A stretch of 64,000 nt of DNA from Thermoflexus sp. (lineage in GTDB: Bacteria; Chloroflexota; Anaerolineae; B4-G1; SLSP01): assembly GCA_020722365.1 (NCBI GenBank), contig DYKY01000001.1, positions 15,357 through 79,356 on the forward strand, written 5' to 3'. Below are positions 785-18,496 of the stretch, in pieces. The number at the start of each line of letters is the position of its first letter. The first letter of the stretch is position 1. Position numbers and translations under genes: made by a program. The notes beneath the pieces were generated by a model. It saw only the letters and a program-made list of their open reading frames with translations. It did no database searches and was not told the DNA's origin.

Positions 785-840
785 TCGGAAGGCAGACTTT
801 CGACCTTCGACTTCTGGCTTTGGACTATTCCGAGGAGACT

Positions 841-1491
841 ATGCGTATTGTAATCTTCGCCAACGGCATCATCGACAATCCCGCCGAAGCCGCCCGGTGG
901 GTGCGGCCCGGCGATTGCGTCGTCGCAGCGGACGGGGGGACGCGGCACGCGCTGGCCGCCGGCCTCACACCCGACCACGTCATCGGCGACCTGGATTCGC
1001 TTTCGCCGGAGCAGCGCGCGCGCCTCGAAACCGCCGGAACGACGCTGCACGTGCATCCGCCCGCCAAGGATGAAACCGATCTTGAGCTGGCGCTGATGTG
1101 GGCGGCGGCGCAACCAGACGTGACGGAGATCGTCATCCTGGGCGCGCTCGGCGGACGCCCGGATCAGGCGCTTGCCAACCTGCTGCTGCTCGCGTTACCG
1201 GCGTTGGCGGGGCGCGAGACCGTCATCGCCGACAATGCGTGGACAATCCGTTGTCTGCGCGGCGGCGAGACAATGACCTTCCGTGGCCGGCCCGGCGACA
1301 CGCTCTCGCTGCTCCCGCTCGGCGGCGACGCTGCCGGCGTCACAACCGAGGGTCTGGTGTATCCGCTGCGCGACGAAACGCTACACTTCGGCCTCACGCG
1401 CGGTGTCAGCAACGTGTTCGACGGCGAGACGGCAACCGTCTCCCTGCGCACCAGCCTTTTATGGTGTTTGCATCAAAACCAGCGATTTTAA
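841..1491 (+). CDS. thiN: Thiamine pyrophosphokinase.
   Basis: VVAADGGTRHALAAGLTPDHVIGDLDSL matches the TPK catalytic-domain signature (AADgG ... GDfDS). RBS GAGGAG precedes the ATG at 841. The ORF track start at 820 is probably too long. Confidence 0.7.
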   Translation: MRIVIFANGIIDNPAEAARWVRPGDCVVAADGGTRHALAAGLTPDHVIGDLDSLSPEQRARLETAGTTLHVHPPAKDETDLELALMWAAAQPDVTEIVILGALGGRPDQALANLLLLALPALAGRETVIADNAWTIRCLRGGETMTFRGRPGDTLSLLPLGGDAAGVTTEGLVYPLRDETLHFGLTRGVSNVFDGETATVSLRTSLLWCLHQNQRF

Positions 1492-1682
1492 CCGCAAATC
1501 ACGCGAATCTTCGCTAATTCCAAGAAAGCGTCATCATGAACGGGTTCACCAGCGGGGACGAAAATTTCATCACGGAGGCACAAAGGCCACAGAGTTTTCT
1601 GTATTTTTCCGTGTTCTCCGTGTCTCAGGGGTTTATTTACAAGGAGTCTCCATGTAGGGAACCACACCAACGAGGACTAAAA

Positions 1683-1719
1683 TTTGTCAACGGATTGAAC
1701 GGATTTTAACGGATTTTTT
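1683..1719 (+). repeat. Copy (b) of the triple-heptamer ACGGATT motif, upstream of the thiamine SBP gene.
   Basis: TTTGTCAACGGATTGAACGGATTTTAACGGATTTTTT. Confidence 0.7.
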
Positions 1720-1770
1720 AACTTTCAACACGCAACTTGTAACTTTCAACTATTTTTGAAGGAGGTTGAG

Positions 1771-2832
1771 ATGAAATCGCGTATTGTATTGATTGTAGTT
1801 GCGCTCCTGCTACTTGCCGGATGCGCGAAAGCGACACCGGAGGCGGCGACAGGCGAACCCCGCGAGCTGCGGGTCATGGTCTACGACAGCTTCAGCGTCA
1901 GCGAAGACGTCATCGCGCGCTTTGAGGCCGAAAACAACGCCACGGTGCAGTTCCTCAAGGCCGGCGACGCCGGCAAAATGCTCAACCAGGCCATCCTTTC
2001 GCGCGACAATCCCCAGGCCGACGTGCTCTACGGCGTGGACAACACCTTCCTCAGCCGCGCGCTGGATGCCGACATCTTTGAGCCGTACAAGGCAAAGAAC
2101 CTCACCGCCATCCCCGAAGCGCTGCACCTGGATGACCACTACCGCGTCGTCCCCACCGACTTCGGCGACGTGTGCCTCAATTACGACAAAGCCTACTTCG
2201 ACGAGCACGCGCTCACGGTCCCGCAAAGCCTGGCGGATCTGACGAAGCCCGAATACAAGGGCCTGCTCGTCGTGGAAAACCCTGCCTCGTCGTCGCCGGG
2301 ACTGGCCTTTCTCATCGCCACCATCGGCGTTTTTGGCGAGGATCGCTATTTGGACTTCTGGGCCGACTTGCGCGCCAACGACGTGCTGGTCGTGGACGGC
2401 TGGGACACCGCGTACTACAACGAGTTCAGCGGCGGCGCGTATAGCGAAGGCATCCGCCCGCTCGTCGTGAGCTACGCCACCAGCCCCGCCGCCGAAGTCT
2501 ACTTCAGCGAAGGGGCGCTCACCGAGCCGCCGACCGGCGCCGTCACCGCGCCCGGCACGTGCTTCCGCCAGATCGAATTTGCCGGCATCCTCAAAGGCGC
2601 GGAAAATCGCGACCTCGCCGAAGCCTTCATCGAATTTCTGCTCAGCGACAATTTCCAGGCCGACATCCCGCTGCAAATGTGGGTCTTCCCCGCTAACCCC
2701 AACGTAACCCTGCCGCAAGTCTTTACCGACTTTGCCCTCGAAGCCGCGGAACCCGCCGAAGTCCCCGCTGCCGCCATCGAAACCAACCGCGAGCAGTGGA
2801 TCGAGGCGTGGGCGGAAGTTGTTCTTAAGTAG
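1771..2832 (+). CDS. thiB: Thiamine/TPP ABC transporter substrate-binding lipoprotein (ThiB/TbpA-like).
   Basis: Signal peptide with lipobox LLLAGC and a periplasmic-binding-protein (iron/thiamine type) fold pattern. GGAGG RBS precedes the ATG at 1771. Lies in the riboswitch-controlled operon. Confidence 0.6.
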   Translation: MKSRIVLIVVALLLLAGCAKATPEAATGEPRELRVMVYDSFSVSEDVIARFEAENNATVQFLKAGDAGKMLNQAILSRDNPQADVLYGVDNTFLSRALDADIFEPYKAKNLTAIPEALHLDDHYRVVPTDFGDVCLNYDKAYFDEHALTVPQSLADLTKPEYKGLLVVENPASSSPGLAFLIATIGVFGEDRYLDFWADLRANDVLVVDGWDTAYYNEFSGGAYSEGIRPLVVSYATSPAAEVYFSEGALTEPPTGAVTAPGTCFRQIEFAGILKGAENRDLAEAFIEFLLSDNFQADIPLQMWVFPANPNVTLPQVFTDFALEAAEPAEVPAAAIETNREQWIEAWAEVVLK

Positions 2833-2850
2833 ACGGTAGACGGTAGACGG
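2829..2850 (+). repeat. Tandem heptamer repeat (GTAGACG)x3 between the SBP and permease genes.
   Basis: GTAGACGGTAGACGGTAGACGG. A related array lies at 63692-63727. Confidence 0.8.
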
Positions 2851-2870
2851 GGGGAGAGAGGGAGCATAAC

Positions 2871-4559
2871 GTGCCTGACAACATCGATCACGAATCACAA
2901 ATCACGAGTCGCAACTCGCAGCTCTTAACTCGCAACTCGCTCCTCGCTCTTCCCCTTCTCTTTCTCCTGCTCTTTTACTTCTACCCGTTGGGCGAAATTT
3001 TCCGCGTGAGCCTCACGTGGGACGCGGGGCCGGCGCCGGATGCGCTGCTTGCACGGCTGTTCGGCCCGGCGACGCTGCGGACACTCGGCTTCACGGCGGG
3101 ACAGGCACTGCTCTCCACGGCGCTGACGCTGCTGCTCGGCCTGCCGGGAGCTTACGTTGTCGCCCGCTACGACTTCCCCGGCAAGCGCCTGCTCAACGCG
3201 CTGACCACCGTGCCGTTCGTGCTGCCCACCGTCGTCGTGGCGGCGGCGTTCACGGCAGTCCTCGGCCCGCGCTCGCCGCTCAATCAAATGCTGATGAACG
3301 CCTTCGACCTCGCGCACCCGCCGCTCGACCTGCGTTACACGCTAGGCGCGATCCTGCTGGCACACGTCTTCTACAACTACACGCTCGTGCTGCGCATCGT
3401 CGGCGGCTTCTGGGCCAACCTCGACCCGCACCTGGAACAGGCCGCGCGCACGCTCGGCGCGTCGCCGTGGCGCGCCTTCGTCGACGTGACGCTGCCCCTG
3501 CTCATGCCCGCGCTCGCCGCCGCCGCCCTGCTCGTCTTCATCTTCTGCTTTACCAGCTTCGGCGTGATCCTCATCCTCGGCGGGCCGCGCTTCGCCACAC
3601 TCGAAGTCGCCATCTACCGCCAGGCCATCGACATGGGCAACTTTCCGCTCGCCGCCGGGCTGTCGTTCGTCCAAATCCTCTGCACCCTCGCATTGACCGT
3701 CGTCTACACCCGGCTGCAAGGCCGGCTGGCCCGTCCTCTGGAATTGCGCCCGCGGTGGATTACACAACGCCGCCCGCGCACATGGGGCGAAATCGCCTTC
3801 GTGCTCGCCAACGTCGGGCTGGGCGCGGCGCTCCTGGGATTGCCGCTCGTGACGCTCGCCGCCCGCTCCTTCGACGCCGGCCTGCGCTACTACACCGCCC
3901 TCTTCGAGAACCCGCGCGGCTCCATCTTCTACGTGCCGCCGGTCGCCGCGGTGGGCAATTCCGTCAAATTTGCGTTGGGGACGATGGCCCTGGCGCTGCT
4001 GCTCGGTGTGCTTACCGCGACGGCGCTCTACCGCCGCAAACAAGGGTGGATGCTGGACGCGCTGTTTATGCTGCCACTCGGCACCTCCGCCGTCACGCTC
4101 GGCCTGGGCTACCTGCTGGCAATGGCGCGCCCGCCGCTGGCCCTGCGCGGTACGCCCGCCCTCATCGTCTTCGGGCACACCCTTGTCGCGCTGCCGTTCG
4201 TCGTGCGCAACGTTATGCCCGCGCTGCAATCGATCCGCCCATCGCTGCGCGAGGCCGCCGCCACGCTCGGCGCGCCGCCGGCCCGCGTCTTTGCGGAAGT
4301 GGACCTGCCCATCGTCTGGCGCGCGCTTGCCGTCGGTGCAGTCTTCGCCTTCACCGTCTCCATGGGCGAATTCGGCGCCACGTCGATGATCGCCCGCCCG
4401 GAACTCCCCACCATCCCCATCGCCATTTACCGCTTCCTCTCCCAGGCCGGCGCGCTCAACTACGGGCAAGCCCTGGCGATGTCCACCCTCCTCATGGCCG
4501 TCTGCGTCGTCGGCTTCGTCGCCATCGAAAGCCTCCGCCCGCCGGGGAGCGAGTGGTGA
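2871..4559 (+). CDS. thiP: ABC transporter permease with duplicated transmembrane domains (ThiP-like, thiamine/iron(III) type).
   Basis: 562 aa with ~12 predicted TM helices and two copies of the ABC permease EAA-like loop. GTG start with a strong RBS GGGAGAGAGGGAG. Confidence 0.65.
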   Translation: MPDNIDHESQITSRNSQLLTRNSLLALPLLFLLLFYFYPLGEIFRVSLTWDAGPAPDALLARLFGPATLRTLGFTAGQALLSTALTLLLGLPGAYVVARYDFPGKRLLNALTTVPFVLPTVVVAAAFTAVLGPRSPLNQMLMNAFDLAHPPLDLRYTLGAILLAHVFYNYTLVLRIVGGFWANLDPHLEQAARTLGASPWRAFVDVTLPLLMPALAAAALLVFIFCFTSFGVILILGGPRFATLEVAIYRQAIDMGNFPLAAGLSFVQILCTLALTVVYTRLQGRLARPLELRPRWITQRRPRTWGEIAFVLANVGLGAALLGLPLVTLAARSFDAGLRYYTALFENPRGSIFYVPPVAAVGNSVKFALGTMALALLLGVLTATALYRRKQGWMLDALFMLPLGTSAVTLGLGYLLAMARPPLALRGTPALIVFGHTLVALPFVVRNVMPALQSIRPSLREAAATLGAPPARVFAEVDLPIVWRALAVGAVFAFTVSMGEFGATSMIARPELPTIPIAIYRFLSQAGALNYGQALAMSTLLMAVCVVGFVAIESLRPPGSEW

Positions 4560-4674
4560 ATGAGCGAATGGGAGAATCAGCGAATAAAAGAATGGGAAAT
4601 CAAGCATCGAGCATCCGGCTTCAAACAACGACAACTCGACTAACGACTATCAGACTAGCGACTACAGGACTAAA

Positions 4675-5727
<1,053 letters not shown>

Positions 5728-5825
5728 CCATCAATCCAGGCTTCCGGCGTCAGCACCGGCAGTAGATCGCGCAACTGCCCCCACCGCTGTCGGTCGCGGA
5801 TTGTGAATTTCCAGGCGAAAAACCC

Positions 5826-5854
5826 TTGACAAAGGGAAAAACCGGCTGTATAAT
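5826..5854 (+). promoter_or_regulatory. Consensus sigma70 promoter (TTGACA-17bp-TATAAT).
   Basis: Exact -35 TTGACA at 5826-5831 and exact -10 TATAAT at 5849-5854, separated by a 17-nt spacer. Confidence 0.7.
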
Positions 5855-5861
5855 CAATTAT

Positions 5862-5875
5862 AGAACATCTGTTCT
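5862..5875 (+). promoter_or_regulatory. Putative LexA operator (Cheo/Gram-positive-type SOS box) number 1.
   Basis: AGAACATCTGTTCT is a perfect GAAC-N4-GTTC palindrome overlapping the predicted +1 of the consensus promoter. Confidence 0.55.
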
Positions 5876-5923
5876 AATAATATCACACCACGCTTTGGCG
5901 TGTTCTTTTTTCGCTTTAGGATT

Positions 5924-5937
5924 AGAACATTTGTTCA
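5924..5937 (+). promoter_or_regulatory. Putative LexA operator (Cheo-type SOS box) number 2.
   Basis: AGAACATTTGTTCA, GAAC-N4-GTTC. A short hairpin plus T-tract (5886-5910) lies between the two boxes. Confidence 0.5.
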
Positions 5938-5947
5938 TAAATAATTA

Positions 5948-6023
5948 AGACTACAAAAGTCTCAGCCCGTACTTCAACGCAAGTATTTGCTTGAACAGGT
6001 GTCGCACAAGACTTTTGTAGTCT
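5948..6023 (+). repeat. 15-bp perfect inverted repeat (AGACTACAAAAGTCT ... AGACTTTTGTAGTCT) with a ~46-nt loop, in the 5'UTR of the FtsK-paralog operon.
   Basis: Read directly in the sequence. The loop contains a smaller hairpin CAAGtatttgCTTG. The RBS GAGGAG and the ATG at 6044 follow. Confidence 0.8.
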
Positions 6024-6043
6024 CAGTATTGTGAGGAGACCCT

Positions 6044-7171
6044 ATGTCACGTTCACTACGTCCTTATTTGGAATACCAGGCCGATCGGGTAGAAGCCGTG
6101 CTGGCCGCGCATCGTACACCGGGACGCGTCACGGGAGGTACAGTCGGGCCTCGGTCGATCCGCTTCTTCTTGAATCCCGCACCGCACATCCGCTTTGCGT
6201 CGATCAAGCGTTTGGCCGATGACCTGGCGCTGGCGATGCAGGTCCCCACCCTCAACGTCGACCGGGGCAAGGAAGGCGTGATTCTGGAATTCTCCAACCC
6301 CAATCCGCGCCCGGTGACGCTGCTCAATCTGTTACCTGAAGCCATGCCTATGCCGGTAGCTACAGCGCTGTTAGGTCTCACCGACGACGGCGCGCCCTTG
6401 CTCGCGCGGCTATCCGCGCCAGAGGTAGCACACATTCTCGTCTCCGGCACTACGGGGTCGGGCAAGTCGGTGCTGTTGCGGACCATAGCGGCGTCGCTGG
6501 CGCTCACCCACACGCCAAGTCTGCTGCAAATGCTGTGCATCGATCCAAAAGGTCGCGCGTTTCCGGCTTTTAACGGCATCCCCCATCTCACCCGTAAGCC
6601 GATTGTCGATGTAGCGGAGGCATTAGAGGCGCTGCGCTCGGTGGTACGCGTGATGGACTCCCGCGACCGGCGTGGCGAAGCGCCGATCGCCAGCCGCAAC
6701 GCTATCGTTTCGCACGATGAAGGGATACAAGGCACATCCATCCCACGCATCGTCATCTTCATCGACGAGCTGGCCGATTTAGTGATGCAGGGCGAAGCGC
6801 CGTTCACCGACACGTTGACACGCCTTGTCCAGCGTGGCAGACAGGCAGGCATCCACGTCATCGCGGCGACACAGCACCCCTCGTCCGCCATCCTCAGCAG
6901 CGTGATGCGGGCGAATTTTCCACTGCGGCTGGTAGGTCGTGTCGTCTCAGCGGATGATGCCAGAGTCGCATCGGGGAGAGCGGGGACAAACGCGCATCTT
7001 CTCAATGGACGCGGGGATTTTCTGGCAGTCAGTGGTGGGGAAAATCCGATTCGATTTCAAGTAGCCTATATCGATGAGAAGGAGCTTAGACAACAAATGG
7101 CAATGCTGAGCGGCACTGTGGCGCCCTATTCAGCACAGTTGCCGGTATTGGCCTATAGGAGTGCAGCATAA
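6044..7171 (+). CDS. Soluble FtsK/SpoIIIE-family DNA-translocase motor paralog (alpha/beta ATPase domains only).
   Basis: Walker A SGTTGSGKSV and Walker B IVIFIDELADL, collinear with the motor domain of the canonical FtsK at 16085-18496 (IDPK..GIPHL.., ATQ..S). Lacks the N-terminal membrane domain and the gamma winged-helix domain. Confidence 0.8.
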   Translation: MSRSLRPYLEYQADRVEAVLAAHRTPGRVTGGTVGPRSIRFFLNPAPHIRFASIKRLADDLALAMQVPTLNVDRGKEGVILEFSNPNPRPVTLLNLLPEAMPMPVATALLGLTDDGAPLLARLSAPEVAHILVSGTTGSGKSVLLRTIAASLALTHTPSLLQMLCIDPKGRAFPAFNGIPHLTRKPIVDVAEALEALRSVVRVMDSRDRRGEAPIASRNAIVSHDEGIQGTSIPRIVIFIDELADLVMQGEAPFTDTLTRLVQRGRQAGIHVIAATQHPSSAILSSVMRANFPLRLVGRVVSADDARVASGRAGTNAHLLNGRGDFLAVSGGENPIRFQVAYIDEKELRQQMAMLSGTVAPYSAQLPVLAYRSAA

Positions 7172-7556
7172 TATGGAAACGCGAGAACCTTTTGGCAAGC
7201 GGTTAGGACGCTTTGTGGCCTTGATCAGCATCGTCTTCACAGTAGCCTTGGTCGTCGTGGTCACACAACGGCTCAGCCAGGATTCGCTGGCATTGTTGAT
7301 CGGGCTGGCGTGCGGCGTGGGGGCAATGCTGCCGACGCTCCTGCTCGGCGTGGTGATCTGGCGGCGTGAAATGCAACAGCAACAGCAAGTATCCCGGATG
7401 CCAATGGCAACGCCGCCAGTGGTCATCGTGACGCCGCAGGGATTGCCAAATTACGGCGTGCAGCAGCCTGCTCTCAGCGATGGAGGCTTTACCTGGCCGT
7501 GGGCCGGCGTGCAGCAGCCGGCTCGGACATTCACGATTGTCGGCGATGAAGAGTAA
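7161..7556 (+). CDS. Small membrane protein with a poly-Gln tract (2 predicted TM helices).
   Basis: Hydrophobic segments FVALISIVFTVALVVVV and LLIGLACGVGAMLPTLLLGVVIW, followed by QQQQQ and a Pro-rich tail. Start and stop overlap the neighbouring genes (operonic). Confidence 0.5.
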   Translation: MQHNMETREPFGKRLGRFVALISIVFTVALVVVVTQRLSQDSLALLIGLACGVGAMLPTLLLGVVIWRREMQQQQQVSRMPMATPPVVIVTPQGLPNYGVQQPALSDGGFTWPWAGVQQPARTFTIVGDEE

Positions 7557-8460
7557 AACGATAAGCGAGGGCACGATGGGCGCACACTTCAGAAATCTGT
7601 ATGAGCGTTTGAAGACAATGCTGGCGCAGCGCGATACGTTTGCGAGCGATGGTGCGTTGCGCGCACTCTTCGCGGAGCCGCGCCTATGCGAATGGCAGGC
7701 AAATCTGCCCTATACCCACAGCCGCGAGCGGCGCGTCGTACAAACCATCCACTATCTGCACGGCCAGTATAACATCGATCACGAGAACGGTCTGGTGTTG
7801 CTACTCCAGGTGCTCAGTGAGCAGGCCGGCCTAGATGACGACTTCCAGTTGGCCATGAGTGATATGGCCGAGCGGGTGCAATATATGATTCACAAAGACA
7901 ACCGCGAACGACTCAACAAGGTGTTATCCGGGCTGGATTTTGACCCAACACTGCAACCGGAAGCACCCTTCGCCGGTCAAGTCATTGCCGGTACGGGCAA
8001 CGTCGTGATGACGTGCATCGACACGCTGAGGCCAGGGGAGGTCTACCGTCTCGGCGTGATCGGCAGCAGTATGGAACACGAAGGCATCTTCGAAGGCGAC
8101 GAGGTAGTGATGCGCGTCTTTTTCAATTCCGAGTGGCCTGGCGAAGGGGACATGATCGTGACCAAGTATCTGCCTTACGGCGCTGAACCGGAGTTTAGCG
8201 CGGATTTCATCGGGACGGACTTGCTGGGACCGACGCTGAAGGTCTTCCACCAGAAAGCCAACGGCGAGTTCCACCTGGGATGGCGCAAGGACAACGTCGC
8301 CTGGACATCCACAGTATGGAAGCGGCTCGCTGCACCAGGCAACGCGCAGATGATTGTGACACGCTACATCGCGCCCATCGGCAAGGTGATCGACGTCAAA
8401 AAGCGGCGCGTGTGGAATTTTGCAATCCGCACAGGTTTGTGGATTTTGGGAGGTGACTGA
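7546..8460 (+). CDS. Two-domain protein: unknown alpha-helical N-terminal domain plus a C-terminal S24 (LexA/UmuD-like) self-cleaving peptidase domain.
   Basis: GVIGSSMEHEGIFEGDEVV matches the catalytic-Ser motif (G-x-S-M ... GD) and MIVTKYL matches the catalytic-Lys motif (VTVKRL in LexA). A candidate Ala-Gly cleavage site sits in FAGQVIA|GTGNV at ~7987-7992. No recognisable winged HTH at the N-terminus. Confidence 0.65.
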   Translation: MKSKTISEGTMGAHFRNLYERLKTMLAQRDTFASDGALRALFAEPRLCEWQANLPYTHSRERRVVQTIHYLHGQYNIDHENGLVLLLQVLSEQAGLDDDFQLAMSDMAERVQYMIHKDNRERLNKVLSGLDFDPTLQPEAPFAGQVIAGTGNVVMTCIDTLRPGEVYRLGVIGSSMEHEGIFEGDEVVMRVFFNSEWPGEGDMIVTKYLPYGAEPEFSADFIGTDLLGPTLKVFHQKANGEFHLGWRKDNVAWTSTVWKRLAAPGNAQMIVTRYIAPIGKVIDVKKRRVWNFAIRTGLWILGGD

Positions 8461-8705
8461 TGCTATTCAATCTAGCAGCGCGCCGTGAACCGATCCGGCT
8501 CATCGCACGGAACCACAACTACTTTCCACAGCGGTTCATGTGGCGCGGGCAACAATACCGCGTGCATTCAGTCATCCGCGCGTGGACGGAGATGAAGCGG
8601 AAAGGGACCTTGTACTTCTTTCGCGTGCGTTGCCCGGAGGGCGTCTTCGATCTGTGCCAGGATTTGTCGCTCAATGCCTGGTATCTGGCACGGCAGGTAG
8701 AGTAG
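8460..8705 (+). CDS. Hypothetical small protein (81 aa).
   Basis: ATG overlaps the upstream stop (TGATG). No recognisable domain. Confidence 0.4.
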   Translation: MLFNLAARREPIRLIARNHNYFPQRFMWRGQQYRVHSVIRAWTEMKRKGTLYFFRVRCPEGVFDLCQDLSLNAWYLARQVE

Positions 8706-8762
8706 GAAGATGGATAGAGATGGGGAGAGAGATAGAGATAGAGGGCGGGATTGGAGGGAAAA

Positions 8763-9002
8763 ATGGACGTAGGATTGTTGTGGCACGATGGTGGTTCGGC
8801 AGATCTGGCGGGGACGTTGGCACAGGCAGCCAAGCGATATCGCGACCGTTTTGGAGACAAACCCAATGTCTGCTACGTGCACCCAACGCTGTTGCCCGAC
8901 GGCGACCGCAAGGTGAACGGCATTCTGGTACGTCCGTCCGCGCGGGTTTTGCGCCACCATTTCTGGCTCGGGCAGGAGAAGGCCGAGCAACCCACAGCGT
9001 AG
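8763..9002 (+). CDS. Hypothetical small protein (~79 aa).
   Basis: GGAGGG RBS precedes the ATG at 8763. Last gene of the same-strand cluster. Confidence 0.35.
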   Translation: MDVGLLWHDGGSADLAGTLAQAAKRYRDRFGDKPNVCYVHPTLLPDGDRKVNGILVRPSARVLRHHFWLGQEKAEQPTA

Positions 9003-13842: not shown

Positions 13843-14102
13843 GCTGCCACACCTCCTTCAGCAACGACAACGTTCACCCGCTTGCGCCCGTGGACAACGT
13901 CGTACTTGACGCGCCCATCGGCCATTGCGAAGAGGGTGTAGTCCTTGCCCATGCCCACGTTGACGCCGGGCTTGATATGCATTCCCACCTGACGCACGAT
14001 GATATTGCCGGTAATAACGGCTTCCCCACCGTATTTCTTGACCCCGCGCCGCTTGGCGCGACTGTCGCGACCGTTCGTTCCAGTTGCCTTCTTGCGTGCC
14101 AT
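13839..14102 (-). CDS. rpmA: 50S ribosomal protein L27.
   Basis: [29 protein letters not shown] is the canonical L27 N-terminus. Confidence 0.9.
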
Positions 14103-14106
14103 TGTG

Positions 14107-14421
14107 CTATGCTCCCTTCACAATATCGTCAACGCGCAGACGCATGTAAGTCTGGCGATGACCCTGGCGACGGCGATATCGCTCTTTGGGACGATATTTG
14201 AAGATGCGAATTTTGGGACCGCGGAATTCGTCCATGACGGTAGCGCGCACGACCGCGCCCTCGACCGTCGGCTGCCCCACCAACACATGCTCACCGTCAT
14301 CCAACAAATAAACCTGATCCAGTTCCACCTGTGCGCCCACCGGGTACGGAAGCCGCTCGACAATGAGGTCGCTTCCGACGCTGGCCTTGTACTGGTGTCC
14401 TCCCGATTTGATCACTGCGTA
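14107..14421 (-). CDS. rplU: 50S ribosomal protein L21.
   Basis: [17 protein letters not shown].. L21 signature. Start at the internal Met; the longer ORF-track call to 14625 is probably leader. Confidence 0.85.
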
Positions 14422-14644
14422 CACGTTTTCCTCCCTGATCCACAAGCCTATGGTCATAGGCCCTAATACAAAACATGAGCCGACCCCTTGAAGGTTCGGC
14501 TGTCGGGTCATTATAGCTAAGTCGATGAATTTGTCAAACCCCATCGTGCGAGAATGAAACACACCCAAATCAGATTCGGCAACTTGTCTTTTGGCCCTTT
14601 CGGTGTACAAAGCGTGTGATCTCATGGTTTTTACCCCTTGTTAT

Positions 14645-14658
14645 AGAATATATGTTCT
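14645..14658 (+). promoter_or_regulatory. Degenerate Cheo-type LexA box upstream of radA.
   Basis: AGAATATATGTTCT (GAAT-N4-GTTC, 1 mismatch to GAAC-N4-GTTC), 29 nt upstream of the radA ATG. Confidence 0.3.
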
Positions 14659-14686
14659 AGTACAATAAGGGGAGGAGGACAATTCA

Positions 14687-16069
14687 ATGGCGAAACGGGA
14701 AAGTCGCTGGGTCTGCCAGCAATGCAACTGGAGCTACGCGCGACATATGGGCAGGTGTCCCAACTGCGGCGCGTGGGATTCCCTGGTTGAAGTCCCACTG
14801 GAGACGGGGGATAGCGGTACAACAGCATCAGCGCCGCGCAGCGCGCAACGCCCGCAGCCGTTAAGCCAGGTCGATCTCGGCGCGGTGGACCGCATTCCGG
14901 TACTGATGAACGAGTTCTCTCGCGTGCTCGGCGGTGGGTTGGTTCCCGGCTCTATCGTGCTGATCGGCGGTGAACCGGGGATCGGCAAGTCGACGCTGCT
15001 GCTGCAAGTCGCTGCCGCGCTTGGCTCGACCGAGCATCCCGTGCTCTACGTCTCCGGGGAAGAATCCCCCCGGCAGATCAAAATGCGCGCTAAACGCCTG
15101 GGCATTGAGGGCGATCCGCTGTACCTGCTGTCGGAAACCGAGGCCGGCGCCATCCTCGCCCAGGCCGGCGCGATGCAACCCACACCGCAAGCGTTGGTCG
15201 TCGATTCCATCCAAACCGTACACAACGAGGATATGACGTCAGCGGCGGGCAGCGTGAGCCAGGTGCGCGAGTGCGCGGTCAGCTTTCAACGCTGGGCGAA
15301 GGAAAGCGGTGTGCCTGTCTTCGTGGTAGGTCACGTCACCAAACAAGGCTCGATTGCCGGGCCAAAGGTCTTGGAGCATATCGTCGACACGGTGTTGTAT
15401 CTGGAAGGCGACCCCTTCCACACCTACCGGCTGCTGCGCAGCGTGAAGAACCGCTTCGGCGCGACTTCCGAGGTGGGTGTGTTCGAGATGCAAGAGAAGG
15501 GCCTCGTCGAGGTCGCCAATCCTTCGGAAACGTTCCTGGCCGAGCGCATGGTGAACGTGCCGGGATCGACCATCGCCGTCACCATGGAAGGGACGCGTCC
15601 GCTCCTGGTCGAGATTCAGGCGTTGGCGAGCCACACCAGCTTCGGCAACCCGCGCCGCACCGTCAACGGCCTGGACTTCAACCGGCTGCTGCTCACCGTC
15701 GCCGTGCTCACCCGCCGGGTGGGGCTGCGGCTGGACGAGCAGGACATCTTCGCCAACGTCGTGGGTGGGTTGCAAATCGAGGAGCCGGCCGCCGACCTCG
15801 CCGTGGCGGTGGCGCTGGCTTCGAGTCTGCGCGACCAGCCCGTTCCGGCGGACATAGCGGTGGTCGGTGAAGTGGGACTTTCCGGCGAAGTGCGTTCGGT
15901 GAGCCAGTTGGAATCCCGGATGAGCGAGGCTGCGCGTCTGGGCTTCACCAAGATCGTCATCCCGCGAAGCATGCAGCGCAAGCAGTTGCGCCCGCCCGAC
16001 GGGTTAACCCTGATCCCGGTGCGCTCGGTGGGCGAAGCCATCGAAGCTGCGCTAGGGCCAAAACGATAA
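14687..16069 (+). CDS. radA: DNA repair protein RadA/Sms.
   Basis: N-terminal C4 zinc finger (CQQCNW..CPNCGAW), RecA-like P-loop GEPGIGKST, KNRFG motif and C-terminal Lon-like domain. Confidence 0.9.
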   Translation: MAKRESRWVCQQCNWSYARHMGRCPNCGAWDSLVEVPLETGDSGTTASAPRSAQRPQPLSQVDLGAVDRIPVLMNEFSRVLGGGLVPGSIVLIGGEPGIGKSTLLLQVAAALGSTEHPVLYVSGEESPRQIKMRAKRLGIEGDPLYLLSETEAGAILAQAGAMQPTPQALVVDSIQTVHNEDMTSAAGSVSQVRECAVSFQRWAKESGVPVFVVGHVTKQGSIAGPKVLEHIVDTVLYLEGDPFHTYRLLRSVKNRFGATSEVGVFEMQEKGLVEVANPSETFLAERMVNVPGSTIAVTMEGTRPLLVEIQALASHTSFGNPRRTVNGLDFNRLLLTVAVLTRRVGLRLDEQDIFANVVGGLQIEEPAADLAVAVALASSLRDQPVPADIAVVGEVGLSGEVRSVSQLESRMSEAARLGFTKIVIPRSMQRKQLRPPDGLTLIPVRSVGEAIEAALGPKR

Positions 16070-16084
16070 CGAGACATAGAGATT

Positions 16085-18496
16085 ATGACGAAAAGAAGCA
16101 CTTCTTCACGCTCAAACGGCCGCTCCACGTCACGCGGGCGCTCGTCATCGGGCAATCGGCGCACCACGCGCAAGAAACCGCGCGAATCGCTGTGGAATCG
16201 CCTGAGCGCCGAGCAAAAGCTGGACATTGTTGGCTGGATCCTGTTTTTCCTGGCCCTGCTCACAATCCTGAGCTTTATCTCGGCGCAGCAGGGCGCGCTG
16301 ACCGAATGGTGGATTTCGCTCCTGGCACAGACGTTCGGGTGGGGAATGTACGTCGTGCCGCTGTTCTTCGGCGGAGTAGGACTGTGGCTCATCCTGCGCC
16401 GCTTCGAGGATCGCCTTCCAAAAATCGATCCTGAACAGATCGTAGGCGTGATCGCCGGATTCTTTGTCGCGTTGATGACGCTGCATCTCATCACCAGTTT
16501 TGCGTGGCCGCAGATCAACTTCTACCGTCTGGGGGAAGGCGGCAGCGGCGGCGGATTGATCGGCGCGTTGATGCTGGATGTGAGCGTCAAGGCGCTCGGC
16601 AAAGTTGGCGCCACAATCTTCCTCATCCTGGTCTGGATGGTCATCGTGACGTTCATCGCCGGCATCTCGCCCGCCGACGCGGTCCGCCTGCTGAGCGAGC
16701 TCGCCGAGAGGCGGCGAACCACTGGACAGCAGAATATCCCGCCGTGGGATGTGACGCAACTGTCCCTGCCGCCTGACGCGATGACGCCGACAGGCCCCCC
16801 TGCCGGTCCGAAAATCCTCGGTGGCGGCGCCGAAGCGGAATCGTCGAAAGCAGCGCCAGGCCGCAAGAAGAAAGAGGATGAAATCCGCATTAACGTGGCA
16901 GCCCGTCCCACGAACGGCAACGGCGCTCTGGAATTCGAAGGGCCGACGCTGGTGGTAGGGGCGCAGGCGTGGCGCTTGCCGAGCGTTGTCGATGTGCTGG
17001 AAGAGGGCAGCGAGCAATACTACAGCGAGGACCTGATCCGCAAACAAGTCCGCGTCATCGAGAAGACGCTGGAAAGCCTGGGCGCGCCCGTGCGCGTGCG
17101 TGAAATTAACCAGGGGCCGGTGGTCACGCAGTTTGGCACGGAACCGCTCTTTGTCACGGCGCGTACCGGACGTACAACCAAGGTCAAAGTCAGCAAGATC
17201 ACCAGCCTGGCGGATGATCTGGCGCTGGCGCTTTCGGCACGCAGCATCCGCATCCAGGCCCCGATCCCCGGCAAAGGGCTGGTGGGCATTGAGGTGCCCA
17301 ATGAGGAGCCGGCTGTGGTCTCGTTGCGCGACATCATGGAATCAGAGGCTTTCGACAAGCTCAAGGGCCGTCTACGCCTGGGTCTGGGACAGGATGTCTC
17401 CGGGCAGGCGGTGGCGGCGGATCTGCGCGCGATGCCCCACATGCTCATCGCCGGCGCGACAGGCGCGGGCAAGTCGGTGTGCGTGAACTCCGTCATTGCG
17501 GCGCTGCTGTTGCAAAACACGCCGGACACGCTGCGGATGCTGATGGTCGATCCCAAACGGGTCGAACTGACGCAGTACAACGGCATTCCCCATCTATTGT
17601 CACCGGTGATCGTGGACGTAGAACGGGTCGTACCCGCGTTGAAGTGGGTGATGCGCGAGATGGACAGCCGTTACCGTCGCTTCGCACAAGTTGGCTCACG
17701 CAACATCGAGGACTTCAACCAACGCGTGAGCAAAACGACAGGCGAAGCCCCCATCCCCTACATCACCGTGCTGGTGGATGAGTTGGCCGACCTGATGCTC
17801 CAGTCACCGGAAGAGACAGAGCGCGTGCTGTGCCGCCTGGCGCAGATGGCGCGCGCTACGGGCATCCACCTCATCATCGCCACACAGCGCCCCAGCGTGG
17901 ACGTGGTGACGGGGCTGATCAAGGCCAACTTCCCCTCGCGGGTGGCCTTTGCCGTGGCCTCGTCGGTGGACTCGCGCGTGATCCTGGATATGCCGGGGGC
18001 GGAGCGGCTCTTGGGACGCGGCGATATGCTCTTCATGCCGCCGGACGCCAGCCAACCGCTGCGCCTGCAAGGGGCTTTTGTCTCCGACCACGAGCTGGAT
18101 CGCCTGATCAATTTTTGGCGCAAAGCCGTAGAGCCGGGCAAGTCACCGCGGCAAGTGGACTTCCCCAAACCGATGGCTGCCGCCTACACCGACGAGATCG
18201 CACCGGCCCAACCGGCGCTCTTCCCCGACTTCGAGGAAGAGACGAAACTTGCCGGCCAATTCGAGGATGAACTGCTGCCCACCGCCGTGGAGATTTTCCT
18301 GGCTGAAAACCGGGCGTCAGTCTCCCTGCTGCAACGCCGCATGCGCATTGGCTACACGCGCTCCGCGCGGCTGGTGGAGCAACTGACCGACATGGGGATC
18401 GTGATGCTGGAGACCGAGGGGCAGTTCCGCAAAATCAACCGGGCCGTGGCGGAGTCGCTGCTGCAATCGCTGTATCCGGGAGAGAACGAGACATAG
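16085..18496 (+). CDS. ftsK: DNA translocase FtsK (full length: N-terminal TM domain, Pro-rich linker, motor, gamma domain).
   Basis: 4 N-terminal TM helices, Walker A AGATGAGKSV, Walker B VLVDELADL and a gamma-domain-like C-terminus ..RASVSLLQRRMRIGYTRSARLVEQLTDMGIV. Confidence 0.9.
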   Translation: MTKRSTSSRSNGRSTSRGRSSSGNRRTTRKKPRESLWNRLSAEQKLDIVGWILFFLALLTILSFISAQQGALTEWWISLLAQTFGWGMYVVPLFFGGVGLWLILRRFEDRLPKIDPEQIVGVIAGFFVALMTLHLITSFAWPQINFYRLGEGGSGGGLIGALMLDVSVKALGKVGATIFLILVWMVIVTFIAGISPADAVRLLSELAERRRTTGQQNIPPWDVTQLSLPPDAMTPTGPPAGPKILGGGAEAESSKAAPGRKKKEDEIRINVAARPTNGNGALEFEGPTLVVGAQAWRLPSVVDVLEEGSEQYYSEDLIRKQVRVIEKTLESLGAPVRVREINQGPVVTQFGTEPLFVTARTGRTTKVKVSKITSLADDLALALSARSIRIQAPIPGKGLVGIEVPNEEPAVVSLRDIMESEAFDKLKGRLRLGLGQDVSGQAVAADLRAMPHMLIAGATGAGKSVCVNSVIAALLLQNTPDTLRMLMVDPKRVELTQYNGIPHLLSPVIVDVERVVPALKWVMREMDSRYRRFAQVGSRNIEDFNQRVSKTTGEAPIPYITVLVDELADLMLQSPEETERVLCRLAQMARATGIHLIIATQRPSVDVVTGLIKANFPSRVAFAVASSVDSRVILDMPGAERLLGRGDMLFMPPDASQPLRLQGAFVSDHELDRLINFWRKAVEPGKSPRQVDFPKPMAAAYTDEIAPAQPALFPDFEEETKLAGQFEDELLPTAVEIFLAENRASVSLLQRRMRIGYTRSARLVEQLTDMGIVMLETEGQFRKINRAVAESLLQSLYPGENET

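Follow-up and report, generated by a model that had tools for sequence, protein, structure and literature searches.

Positions 5826-5937 of the window, by which we mean the whole stretch of 64,000 nucleotides (64 kb) of contig DYKY01000001.1 from the uncultured Anaerolineae (Chloroflexota) bacterium Thermoflexus sp., could be identified from their sequence and conservation as the SOS (LexA) control region of an operon conserved in Anaerolineae. The region combines a consensus promoter with two LexA operators, and its unusual trait is a predicted small terminator hairpin, situated between the two repressor sites and at a fixed distance from the second one. That a LexA-repressed promoter is followed here by a conserved leader terminator and by a second, downstream operator acting after initiation is a reading for which we see about even chances. 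The full mechanism that we propose, a terminator reinforced by LexA as a roadblock, switchable by DNA damage and turned off upon LexA cleavage, is offered tentatively, as one that may well turn out otherwise.

The control region lies on the plus strand, in a 316-nt gap between two co-directional genes. Promoter P1 matches the consensus at 12 of 12 positions (TTGACA at 5826-5831, a 17-nt spacer and TATAAT at 5849-5854), and its predicted start site, around 5860-5862, coincides with the first bases of box 1. This box (AGAACATCTGTTCT, 5862-5875) is an exact GAAC-N4-GTTC palindrome that begins 7-8 nt past the consensus -10 hexamer; with its flanks it makes up LexA operator 1 (TAGAACATCTGTTCTA, 5861-5876), which overlaps the predicted +1. 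The hairpin CACGC-tttg-GCGTG (5889-5902), classified as terminator-like in our scan, is directly followed on its 3' side by a T-tract (TTCTTTTTT, 5903-5911; UUCUUUUUU as the U-tract of the RNA). Box 2 (AGAACATTTGTTCA, 5924-5937), again an exact match, lies 48 nt beyond box 1 (62 bp from start to start) and forms with its flank operator 2 (TAGAACATTTGTTCA, 5923-5937), 10-11 nt past the U-tract. It would occupy about +62 to +76 from P1, that is, it sits inside the transcribed leader. The ribosome-binding site GAGGAG (6033-6038) and the ATG of the first gene (6044-6046) were read from the sequence, and the gene call agreed. The initial annotation had described two GAAC-N4-GTTC boxes with a hairpin and a T-tract between them, the first box overlapping the +1 of a consensus promoter and the second 48 nt downstream of it; all of these sequences could be located in the window, the distance was correct and the 12/12 promoter does place its start within the first box. 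Its interpretation as two LexA operators on either side of a weak terminator-like element gained strong support from the conservation of the arrangement and from the presence of the same motif in the lexA promoters of the lineage.

Several results bear on whether these palindromes belong to LexA. The 64-kb window contained four exact GAAC-N4-GTTC matches for 0.87 expected, a number that one out of 100 shuffles reached, and the two matches other than boxes 1 and 2 (26785, 36823) fall within open reading frames (ORFs). We further collected, from GTDB species genomes, 47 loci encoding relatives of the short FtsK-like protein that is the first product of the operon. Forty-six of them belonged to Chloroflexota, and every one of these carried an exact box at most 400 nt upstream of the gene. 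Since only about 0.006 boxes per 400 nt would be expected by chance, 46 out of 46 homologous loci rule out a chance origin. The sole locus of the 47 without an upstream box was an Acidimicrobiales gene with 29% identity. Nearly all loci with a single box (n = 36) followed the scheme cTTGACA-17-TATAAT-N5-6-TAGAAC-N4-GTTCTA, the same layout as P1 with box 1; the exceptions were L035 and L043, where the box stands directly after the -35 hexamer.

The motif was also present at lexA genes of relatives. With the LexA encoded on a metagenomic contig (L055) as query, lexA loci of other Anaerolineae were retrieved, and all four distinct lexA promoters showed the form TTGAC(a/t)-TA-GAACnnnnGTTC-gTGG-TATAAT, the box lying between the two hexamers. 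A box inside the lexA promoters of the lineage corresponds to the autoregulation expected of a LexA site. In the window itself, the promoter of radA (14687-16069), TTGTTA-17-TACAAT at 14638-14666, has a 17-nt spacer that consists exactly of TAGAATATATGTTCTAG, a LexA box with its flanks and one mismatch, and this is likely the third LexA operator of the window. The initial annotation had tied its LexA assignment to the occurrence of the motif upstream of recA, lexA and uvrA of this organism. In relatives the motif was seen at the four lexA promoters, and in the window, with one mismatch, at radA; recA, uvrA and lexA of this genome itself lie outside the sequence analysed. Close to the radA promoter we also noted a second perfect promoter, TTGACA-16-TATAAT, on the minus strand (14510-14537), pointing away from radA and towards ORFs at 13999-14625.

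For Firmicutes and Actinobacteria, GAAC-N4-GTTC has been documented as the motif of LexA, and variants of it are found in Chloroflexi (PMC4951493). The boxes described here share the palindromic core of these operators, that is, of the 'Cheo box' of Firmicutes and Actinobacteria and of the variants in Chloroflexi such as Dehalococcoides. Likewise they overlap a promoter or its +1 and occur at lexA (in relatives) and at the repair gene radA. They differ in the preferred extended form, which is TAGAAC-N4-GTTCTA here and CGAAC-N4-GTTCG in the 'Cheo box' type. Because the motif stands upstream of all 46 homologues, in four lexA promoters and in the promoter of radA, we regard the identity of both boxes as LexA operators as secure at the level of sequence.

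The two-box arrangement was well conserved. In the ten closest genomic loci (L001-L010, 79-92% protein identity) two boxes were always present, 59-64 bp apart, and a scan of metagenomes with the pattern 'box, 22-42 nt, TTYTTTTT, 6-20 nt, TAGAAC-N4-GTTC' returned 19 stretches, 15 of which were the same leader ahead of the same gene. Viral contigs scanned with this pattern gave no match, and a phage origin of the module was rejected on these grounds. Eighteen distinct leaders of close relatives were then available for alignment and dissection. They kept P1, box 1, hairpin, T-tract and box 2 together, and the degree of constraint differed among their parts. The -35 and -10 hexamers were invariant, as were TA-GAAC and GTTC-TA of both boxes; the T-tract read TTCTTTTTT in 15 leaders and the spacer of box 2 read ATTT in 17. 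By comparison, the promoter spacer came in 15 sequence variants, the 4-nt spacer of box 1 in nine, and the hairpin loop varied in sequence as well as in length (4-6 nt). The linker from the T-tract to TAGAAC was remarkable in having 17 sequence variants among 18 leaders and a length of always 10 or 11 nt. A linker of fixed length and free sequence fits a geometric coupling of the U-tract and operator 2.

Box 1 and the T-tract, on the other hand, were separated by 23-28 nt, and the start-to-start spacing of the boxes took every value of 59, 60, 61, 62, 63 and 64 bp, which amounts to half a helical turn. All of this variation sits between box 1 and the hairpin, whereas the distances among hairpin, T-tract and box 2 were rigid. 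The unit held together by selection would thus be hairpin, T-tract, fixed gap and box 2, and not the pair of boxes. This bears directly on cooperative dual-operator repression, one of the readings put forward in the initial annotation. We take it to mean that LexA dimers on both boxes would touch each other through looped or bent DNA of 48 bp, with the T-tract as the bend and the hairpin devoid of any RNA role. It is true that two high-quality operators were kept together in 18 leaders, that LexA binds tandem sites cooperatively in known cases (PMC4951493), that the 62 bp of the window come close to six helical turns and that a T6 run could bend DNA. Documented tandem LexA sites, however, are 1-10 bp apart (PMC4951493) and not 48 nt, and a spacing that drifts from 59 to 64 bp does not conserve helical phase. 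The position of the length variation, between box 1 and the hairpin, together with the rigidity of the remainder points to a unit of terminator and box 2, and a GC palindrome with a variable centre of 4-6 nt that abuts a U-tract is the signature of a terminator. We consider cooperativity between the boxes an unlikely explanation.

The hairpin of the window has a 5-bp stem (CACGC/GCGUG, four G-C pairs) and a 4-nt loop and would be formed about 50 nt into the P1 transcript. The stem-loop is GC-rich and passes on the transcribed strand without a gap into the U-tract, as is characteristic of terminators, and the fold of nucleotides 5861-5911 had a predicted energy of -12.5 kcal/mol (z = -3.6). Hairpins with a stem abutting the T-tract and a loop of 4-6 nt were predicted in 17 of the 18 leaders, with energies from -4.2 to -8.6 kcal/mol; the value of -4.2 kcal/mol belongs to L061, where stem and T-tract overlap and the segmentation used under-counts the stem, and a separate fold of this leader showed the hairpin more completely. 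To call the element between the boxes a resemblance of a weak attenuator, as was done initially, was a fair description. The stem was nearly invariant. L061 had a different stem including one double change from A-U to G-C, in L010 the register was shifted by one pair, and L008, which alone among the leaders deviates in the spacer of box 2, had a C·A mismatch that was not repaired. The centre of the palindrome changes its length while the stem is kept, and together with the compensatory change in L061 this argues for an RNA stem-loop and makes a protein-binding site unlikely. The terminators of the lexA genes of the lineage are far stronger, with a 13-pair stem in L055 and long, GC-rich stems, judged by eye, in L069 and L072.

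The junction of hairpin and T-tract has a further peculiarity. Positions 5898-5907, comprising the 3' arm and the start of the T-tract, read GCGTGTTCT in 15 of 18 leaders and include the LexA half-site GTTCT. In RNA, the GUGUUCU of this segment is complementary to the AGAAC of either box; the corresponding pairing was the minimum-energy fold in L004, though not in the window, and it is possible that pairing of AGAAC with GUUCU serves as an antiterminator. For the conserved C that interrupts the U-tract, this half-site or pairing is the one explanation we can offer. A scan of the window at Rfam gathering thresholds yielded only a thiamine pyrophosphate (TPP) riboswitch (600-708) and a tRNA, and a permissive scan of 5700-6150 gave chance-level matches only (E >= 2.5), with no riboswitch or leader family among them. 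Two other candidate functions of the leader were discarded. A GTG-initiated ORF of 14 codons (5900-5944), which would run as a leader peptide through the T-tract and box 2, has no ribosome-binding site, loses its GTG in L010 and suffers a frameshift in L007. A helix between the RNA copies of box 1 and box 2, as it appears in a 200-nt fold, reflects a complementarity that follows automatically from the shared palindrome, and the spacer of box 1 never complements ATTT.

A second promoter inside the leader had been another of the initial suggestions. In its complete form, the mRNA would come from a promoter P2 with box 2 as its operator, P1 and box 1 would give nothing but a LexA-controlled RNA of about 50 nt, and the terminator, besides ending this RNA, would insulate P2 from upstream transcription. 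In the distant locus L072, the equivalent box is indeed enclosed by a full promoter (TTGACA-17-TATAAT) immediately behind the lexA terminator. Several leaders have retained a hexamer resembling TTGNNA that ends 3 nt ahead of GAAC, and box 2 of the window is flanked by the two hexamers of a weak candidate (TTAGGA-18-AATAAT, 8/12). When we scored every combination of -35 and -10 by which box 2 would come to lie within or close to a promoter, however, the best pairs reached only 5-8 of 12 positions, their hexamers differed from leader to leader, and no conserved -10 followed box 2. Only 4-5 nt separate the end of box 2 from the ribosome-binding site in L010 and L059, too few to accommodate a -10 hexamer and a leader. 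A perfectly conserved consensus P1 would moreover be difficult to account for if it yielded no more than a stub without function. Nor does the putative short RNA look like a regulator acting in trans: the one segment of it that is unpaired, between box 1 and the hairpin, is less conserved than any other part of the module, which makes a conserved seed unlikely, and a terminator acting in cis is the simpler assumption. We consider P2 improbable in this clade; a P2-like promoter may be ancestral and since lost here. For the RNA of about 50 nt itself, pairing of its operator palindrome with other SOS mRNAs that transcribe their operators is a possibility. What we favour is the remaining one of the initial readings, a short LexA-controlled leader transcript or attenuator, which is compatible with all data at hand.

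On this favoured reading, the following sequence of events can be envisaged. The consensus sigma-70 promoter P1 would fire at about 5861, and LexA on operator 1 (+1 to +15) would block initiation at this very strong promoter. For this step, the arrangement is apparent from sequence and conservation, and LexA binding is what we infer from it. The 5-bp hairpin with its U-tract, some 50 nt into the transcript, would act as a weak intrinsic terminator. LexA on operator 2, 10-11 bp past the U-tract, would be a roadblock that holds the active site of RNA polymerase in the U-tract and would make the weak terminator efficient against those polymerases that have got past operator 1 or arrive by read-through from the upstream ATP-binding cassette (ABC) transporter gene. 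Such read-through could not be stopped by operator 1 alone, but it could be by a downstream terminator assisted by operator 2. In our scan, no terminator-like site was detected on the plus strand between the stop codon of the transporter gene (5727) and the hairpin (5889). Upon cleavage of LexA, stimulated by RecA, both operators would be vacated, initiation would be freed, the terminator would become weak again and the operon would be strongly expressed.

The distances are in line with this proposal. RNA polymerase of E. coli halts 14 nt upstream of a roadblock formed by EcoRI-E111Q (PMC5499547), and LexA is among the natural proteins reported to block elongation as roadblocks (PMC10310618). 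Fourteen nucleotides upstream of TAGAAC (5923) is position 5909, within the U-tract at 5903-5911. With a stall point there, LexA on operator 2 would hold the polymerase where the hairpin and a weak hybrid can bring about release. In 18 of 18 leaders the U-tract ends 10-11 nt before TAGAAC, and the match between stall position and release element is one of geometry.

Several observations weigh against the proposal. Termination and roadblocking were both deduced from nothing but the geometry of the sequence, and the 64 kb analysed do not include the lexA, recA and uvrA genes of this organism. The hairpin is weak (5 bp, about -6 to -8 kcal/mol) and near-invariant, so that support from covariation is thin, a single compensatory change set against the break in L008 that was not repaired. 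The spacing of T-tract and box 2 could have been inherited from an ancestral promoter with its -35 at this place, as in L072, rather than selected for roadblocking, and a TTGNNA-like remnant is seen in this interval in several leaders. The single-box paralogues and locus L075, which has the same operon behind a single box, manage without the module. Finally, by following its own strong promoter the terminator would also lower induced expression, unless it is as weak as we assume.

Relatives retain what looks like the raw material of the module. On the metagenomic contig L055, a complete lexA gene stands directly upstream of the FtsK-like gene, and L055, L069 and L072 share the order lexA, terminator, LexA box or boxes, FtsK-like gene, membrane protein gene, holA, with a downstream synteny identical to that of the window. 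In a tblastn search over the fetched FtsK-like loci, L055 was the only one with an adjacent lexA; L069 and L072 were found through their LexA homologues. All three have GAAC 12-13 nt past the T-tract of the lexA terminator, and the box is GAACATTTGTTC in L055 and L069. The junction reads TCTTTTTTCGCTTT-GAAC-TAGAACATTTGTTCA in L055 and TCTTTTTTCGCTTT-AGGAT-TAGAACATTTGTTCA in the window. The FtsK-like proteins of L069 and L072 are only 42-43% identical to that of the window, and the junction would be either old and strongly constrained or transferred by recombination. It looks as if the module was built from an older junction of a lexA terminator with a LexA-boxed promoter of the FtsK-like gene, which distant relatives still possess. 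In L075, the same five-gene operon has a single box (GAACATTTGTTC) directly after P1, so that the segment of about 62 bp extending from box 1 to the T-tract has the character of an insertion or duplication confined to the clade of the window.

Such an origin invites the view that hairpin and T-tract are nothing but the decayed terminator of a former upstream lexA, that box 2 is redundant and that only P1 and box 1 matter. The similar junctions of L055 and L069 would fit, as would the single-box loci that work without the module, L075 with its same operon included, and the coincidence of a broken hairpin with an altered box 2 spacer in L008. A relic, however, is expected to decay at the neutral rate, and across the 18 sequences T-tract, half-sites and spacer of box 2 and linker length were precisely the most conserved parts while neighbouring bases had diverged freely. 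We hold a relic to be very improbable and retain the terminator coupled to operator 2 as our working model.

The operon controlled by this region starts with a short, soluble ATPase of the FtsK/SpoIIIE family (6044-7171, plus strand as for all genes of the operon; 375 aa; PF01580, 1e-34; PF17854, 1.5e-9), whose Pfam matches included neither the membrane nor the gamma domain of FtsK. It has more than 2600 homologues, and every one of them with a source name came from Anaerolineae or Chloroflexota. The second gene (7173-7556, from the gene call) encodes a small protein of 127 aa without a Pfam family and with two hydrophobic segments, membrane helices by eye; its gene comes after that of the ATPase in nearly all loci whose sequence reaches that far. 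The pair of ATPase and two-helix membrane protein of about 130 aa was also seen as several paralogous copies per genome (for example L008 and L011; L009 and L013; L025 and L026; L021, L034 and L038; copies among L011-L047), each ATPase/membrane-protein copy behind a consensus promoter of its own with a LexA box.

The third product (7576-8460, 294 aa) joins an N-terminal death-like domain to a LexA-type S24 self-cleavage domain. Pfam matches were weak (bDLD1, 0.017; Peptidase_S24, 0.031), but the protein shares 39% identity over its C-terminal half with the catalytic domain of a LexA-like protein, and hhalign aligned it to a LexA profile with a probability of 98.3%. In this alignment an invariant I-A-G falls on the V-A-G cleavage site of LexA and G-x-S-M on the catalytic serine; Ala-Gly, Ser and Lys were invariant in 16 members of the family. 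The family is restricted to this Anaerolineae clade, with about 50 sequence clusters, and bDLD1 is recorded for other members of the clade as well. The protein thus looks like a LexA-derived, RecA-responsive self-cleaving module mounted on an adaptor domain and not on a DNA-binding one. As a second, DNA-binding LexA for box 2 it was discarded, since no helix-turn-helix was detected and its N-terminus is death-like. A strict link between this gene and the dual-box module was likewise dismissed: they occur together in L001-L010, but L075 has the gene behind a single-box promoter. The operon ends with a DUF6504 protein (8460-8705; PF20114, 7.6e-7) and an 83-aa ORF (8751-9002), both conserved at the operon end in the copies next to holA (L001-L010, L015-L018, L032, L036, L075). 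No description of a LexA regulon of Anaerolineae or Chloroflexi containing this cassette, nor one of DUF6504, was found in the literature searched.

Downstream of box 2 the leaders were hypervariable. In the window, the 5' untranslated region carries on the plus strand a palindromic element of 80 nt (5947-6026) with perfect inverted termini of 15 nt (AGACTACAAAAGTCT and AGACTTTTGTAGTCT), which forms a long stem and dominates the fold of the leader RNA. At unrelated sites in L054 (8197-8292) and L048 (near 904), and in the leader of L064 (1593 onward), we found copies whose termini are the same and whose interior varies. This stem was rejected as a part of the regulator because it is absent from most related leaders and occurs at unrelated sites; it looks like a small dispersed repeat, similar to a miniature inverted-repeat transposable element or a repetitive extragenic palindrome, that was inserted between box 2 and the ribosome-binding site. 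The same segment holds short tandem repeats (GATTCGCTGATTCGCCAATTCGC...) in L001 (about 1560-1640), L002, L056 and L065, another insert in L005 and L006, and about 180 extra nt in L008, and can be regarded as an insertion hot spot. In a different, AT-richer organism (L052, 1116-1205; L063, 3407-3496), we noted three head-to-tail units of about 45 bp, each with TATAGAACATATGTTCTA after a T9 run, which would amount to an array of LexA-type boxes.

As to the genomic setting, the upstream neighbour is the ATPase gene of the ABC transporter (4675-5727, plus strand), the last ORF of a plus-strand run (820-5727) that ends before the SOS promoter and has the TPP riboswitch (RF00059, 69 bits) upstream of it. 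The gene holA follows the operon on the opposite strand. The surroundings are ordinary chromosome, with sortase, rpmE, radA, a canonical ftsK (16085-18496), cysS and other genes.

LexA regulation is usually described as simple promoter occlusion. Repression or termination by roadblock is familiar from CodY and CcpA in B. subtilis, from PurR and LacI in E. coli, and from RNA polymerase I (Pol I) with Reb1, Nsi1 or TTF-I. We know of no bacterial coupling of a LexA operator to a leader terminator and of no LexA regulon with a second layer after initiation. Tandem LexA operators as such are known from E. coli (lexA, colicin genes, ydjM), B. subtilis (lexA, yqjW) and Verrucomicrobia (lexA), at distances of 1-10 bp (PMC4951493). 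They too put more than one LexA site on a tightly repressed transcription unit, but act on initiation, whereas here the second site lies in the transcribed leader, 48 nt away and behind a terminator-like hairpin. The parts are familiar ones (LexA boxes, consensus promoter, intrinsic terminator), and the order operator-terminator-operator with a fixed distance of terminator and operator was undescribed for LexA in the literature searched. The closest parallel that we see is in eukaryotes: Pol I comes to a halt in a T-rich element, 15 bp ahead of the Reb1 site, and needs an upstream hairpin for release (PMC12366685). The order of hairpin, T-rich tract and protein site some 10-15 bp further on is the same, a resemblance that is functional and confined to geometry; the Pol I roadblock is constitutive, whereas the one proposed here would be removed by DNA damage.

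The gene content also recalls known systems. In E. coli, ftsK is SOS-inducible from the dinH promoter, and Gram-positive bacteria have SOS inhibitors of cell division next to lexA (YneA, ChiZ, DivS, SosA). As with E. coli ftsK, a gene of the FtsK family would be under LexA in Thermoflexus; here, however, it is a separate, soluble paralogue of 375 aa, in addition to which the genome keeps a canonical FtsK (16085-18496). In L069 and L072, the small membrane protein takes a place similar to that of the Gram-positive inhibitors, close to lexA, but it has no detectable similarity to YneA, ChiZ, DivS or SosA, and a role of the ATPase and the membrane protein in division arrest is conjecture.

If the proposed mechanism holds true, a checkpoint at the level of elongation and termination would be added to the SOS response, as a second layer after initiation, and the leader would be a compact example of intrinsic termination conditional on a repressor and a bacterial counterpart of the Pol I terminators composed of hairpin, T-rich element and roadblock protein. 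The cassette that it controls, a soluble FtsK-like motor with a small membrane protein, is widespread in filamentous Anaerolineae and includes in this clade the fusion of S24 and death-like domains. Taken together, its genes suggest a signalling triggered by DNA damage that goes beyond transcriptional derepression.

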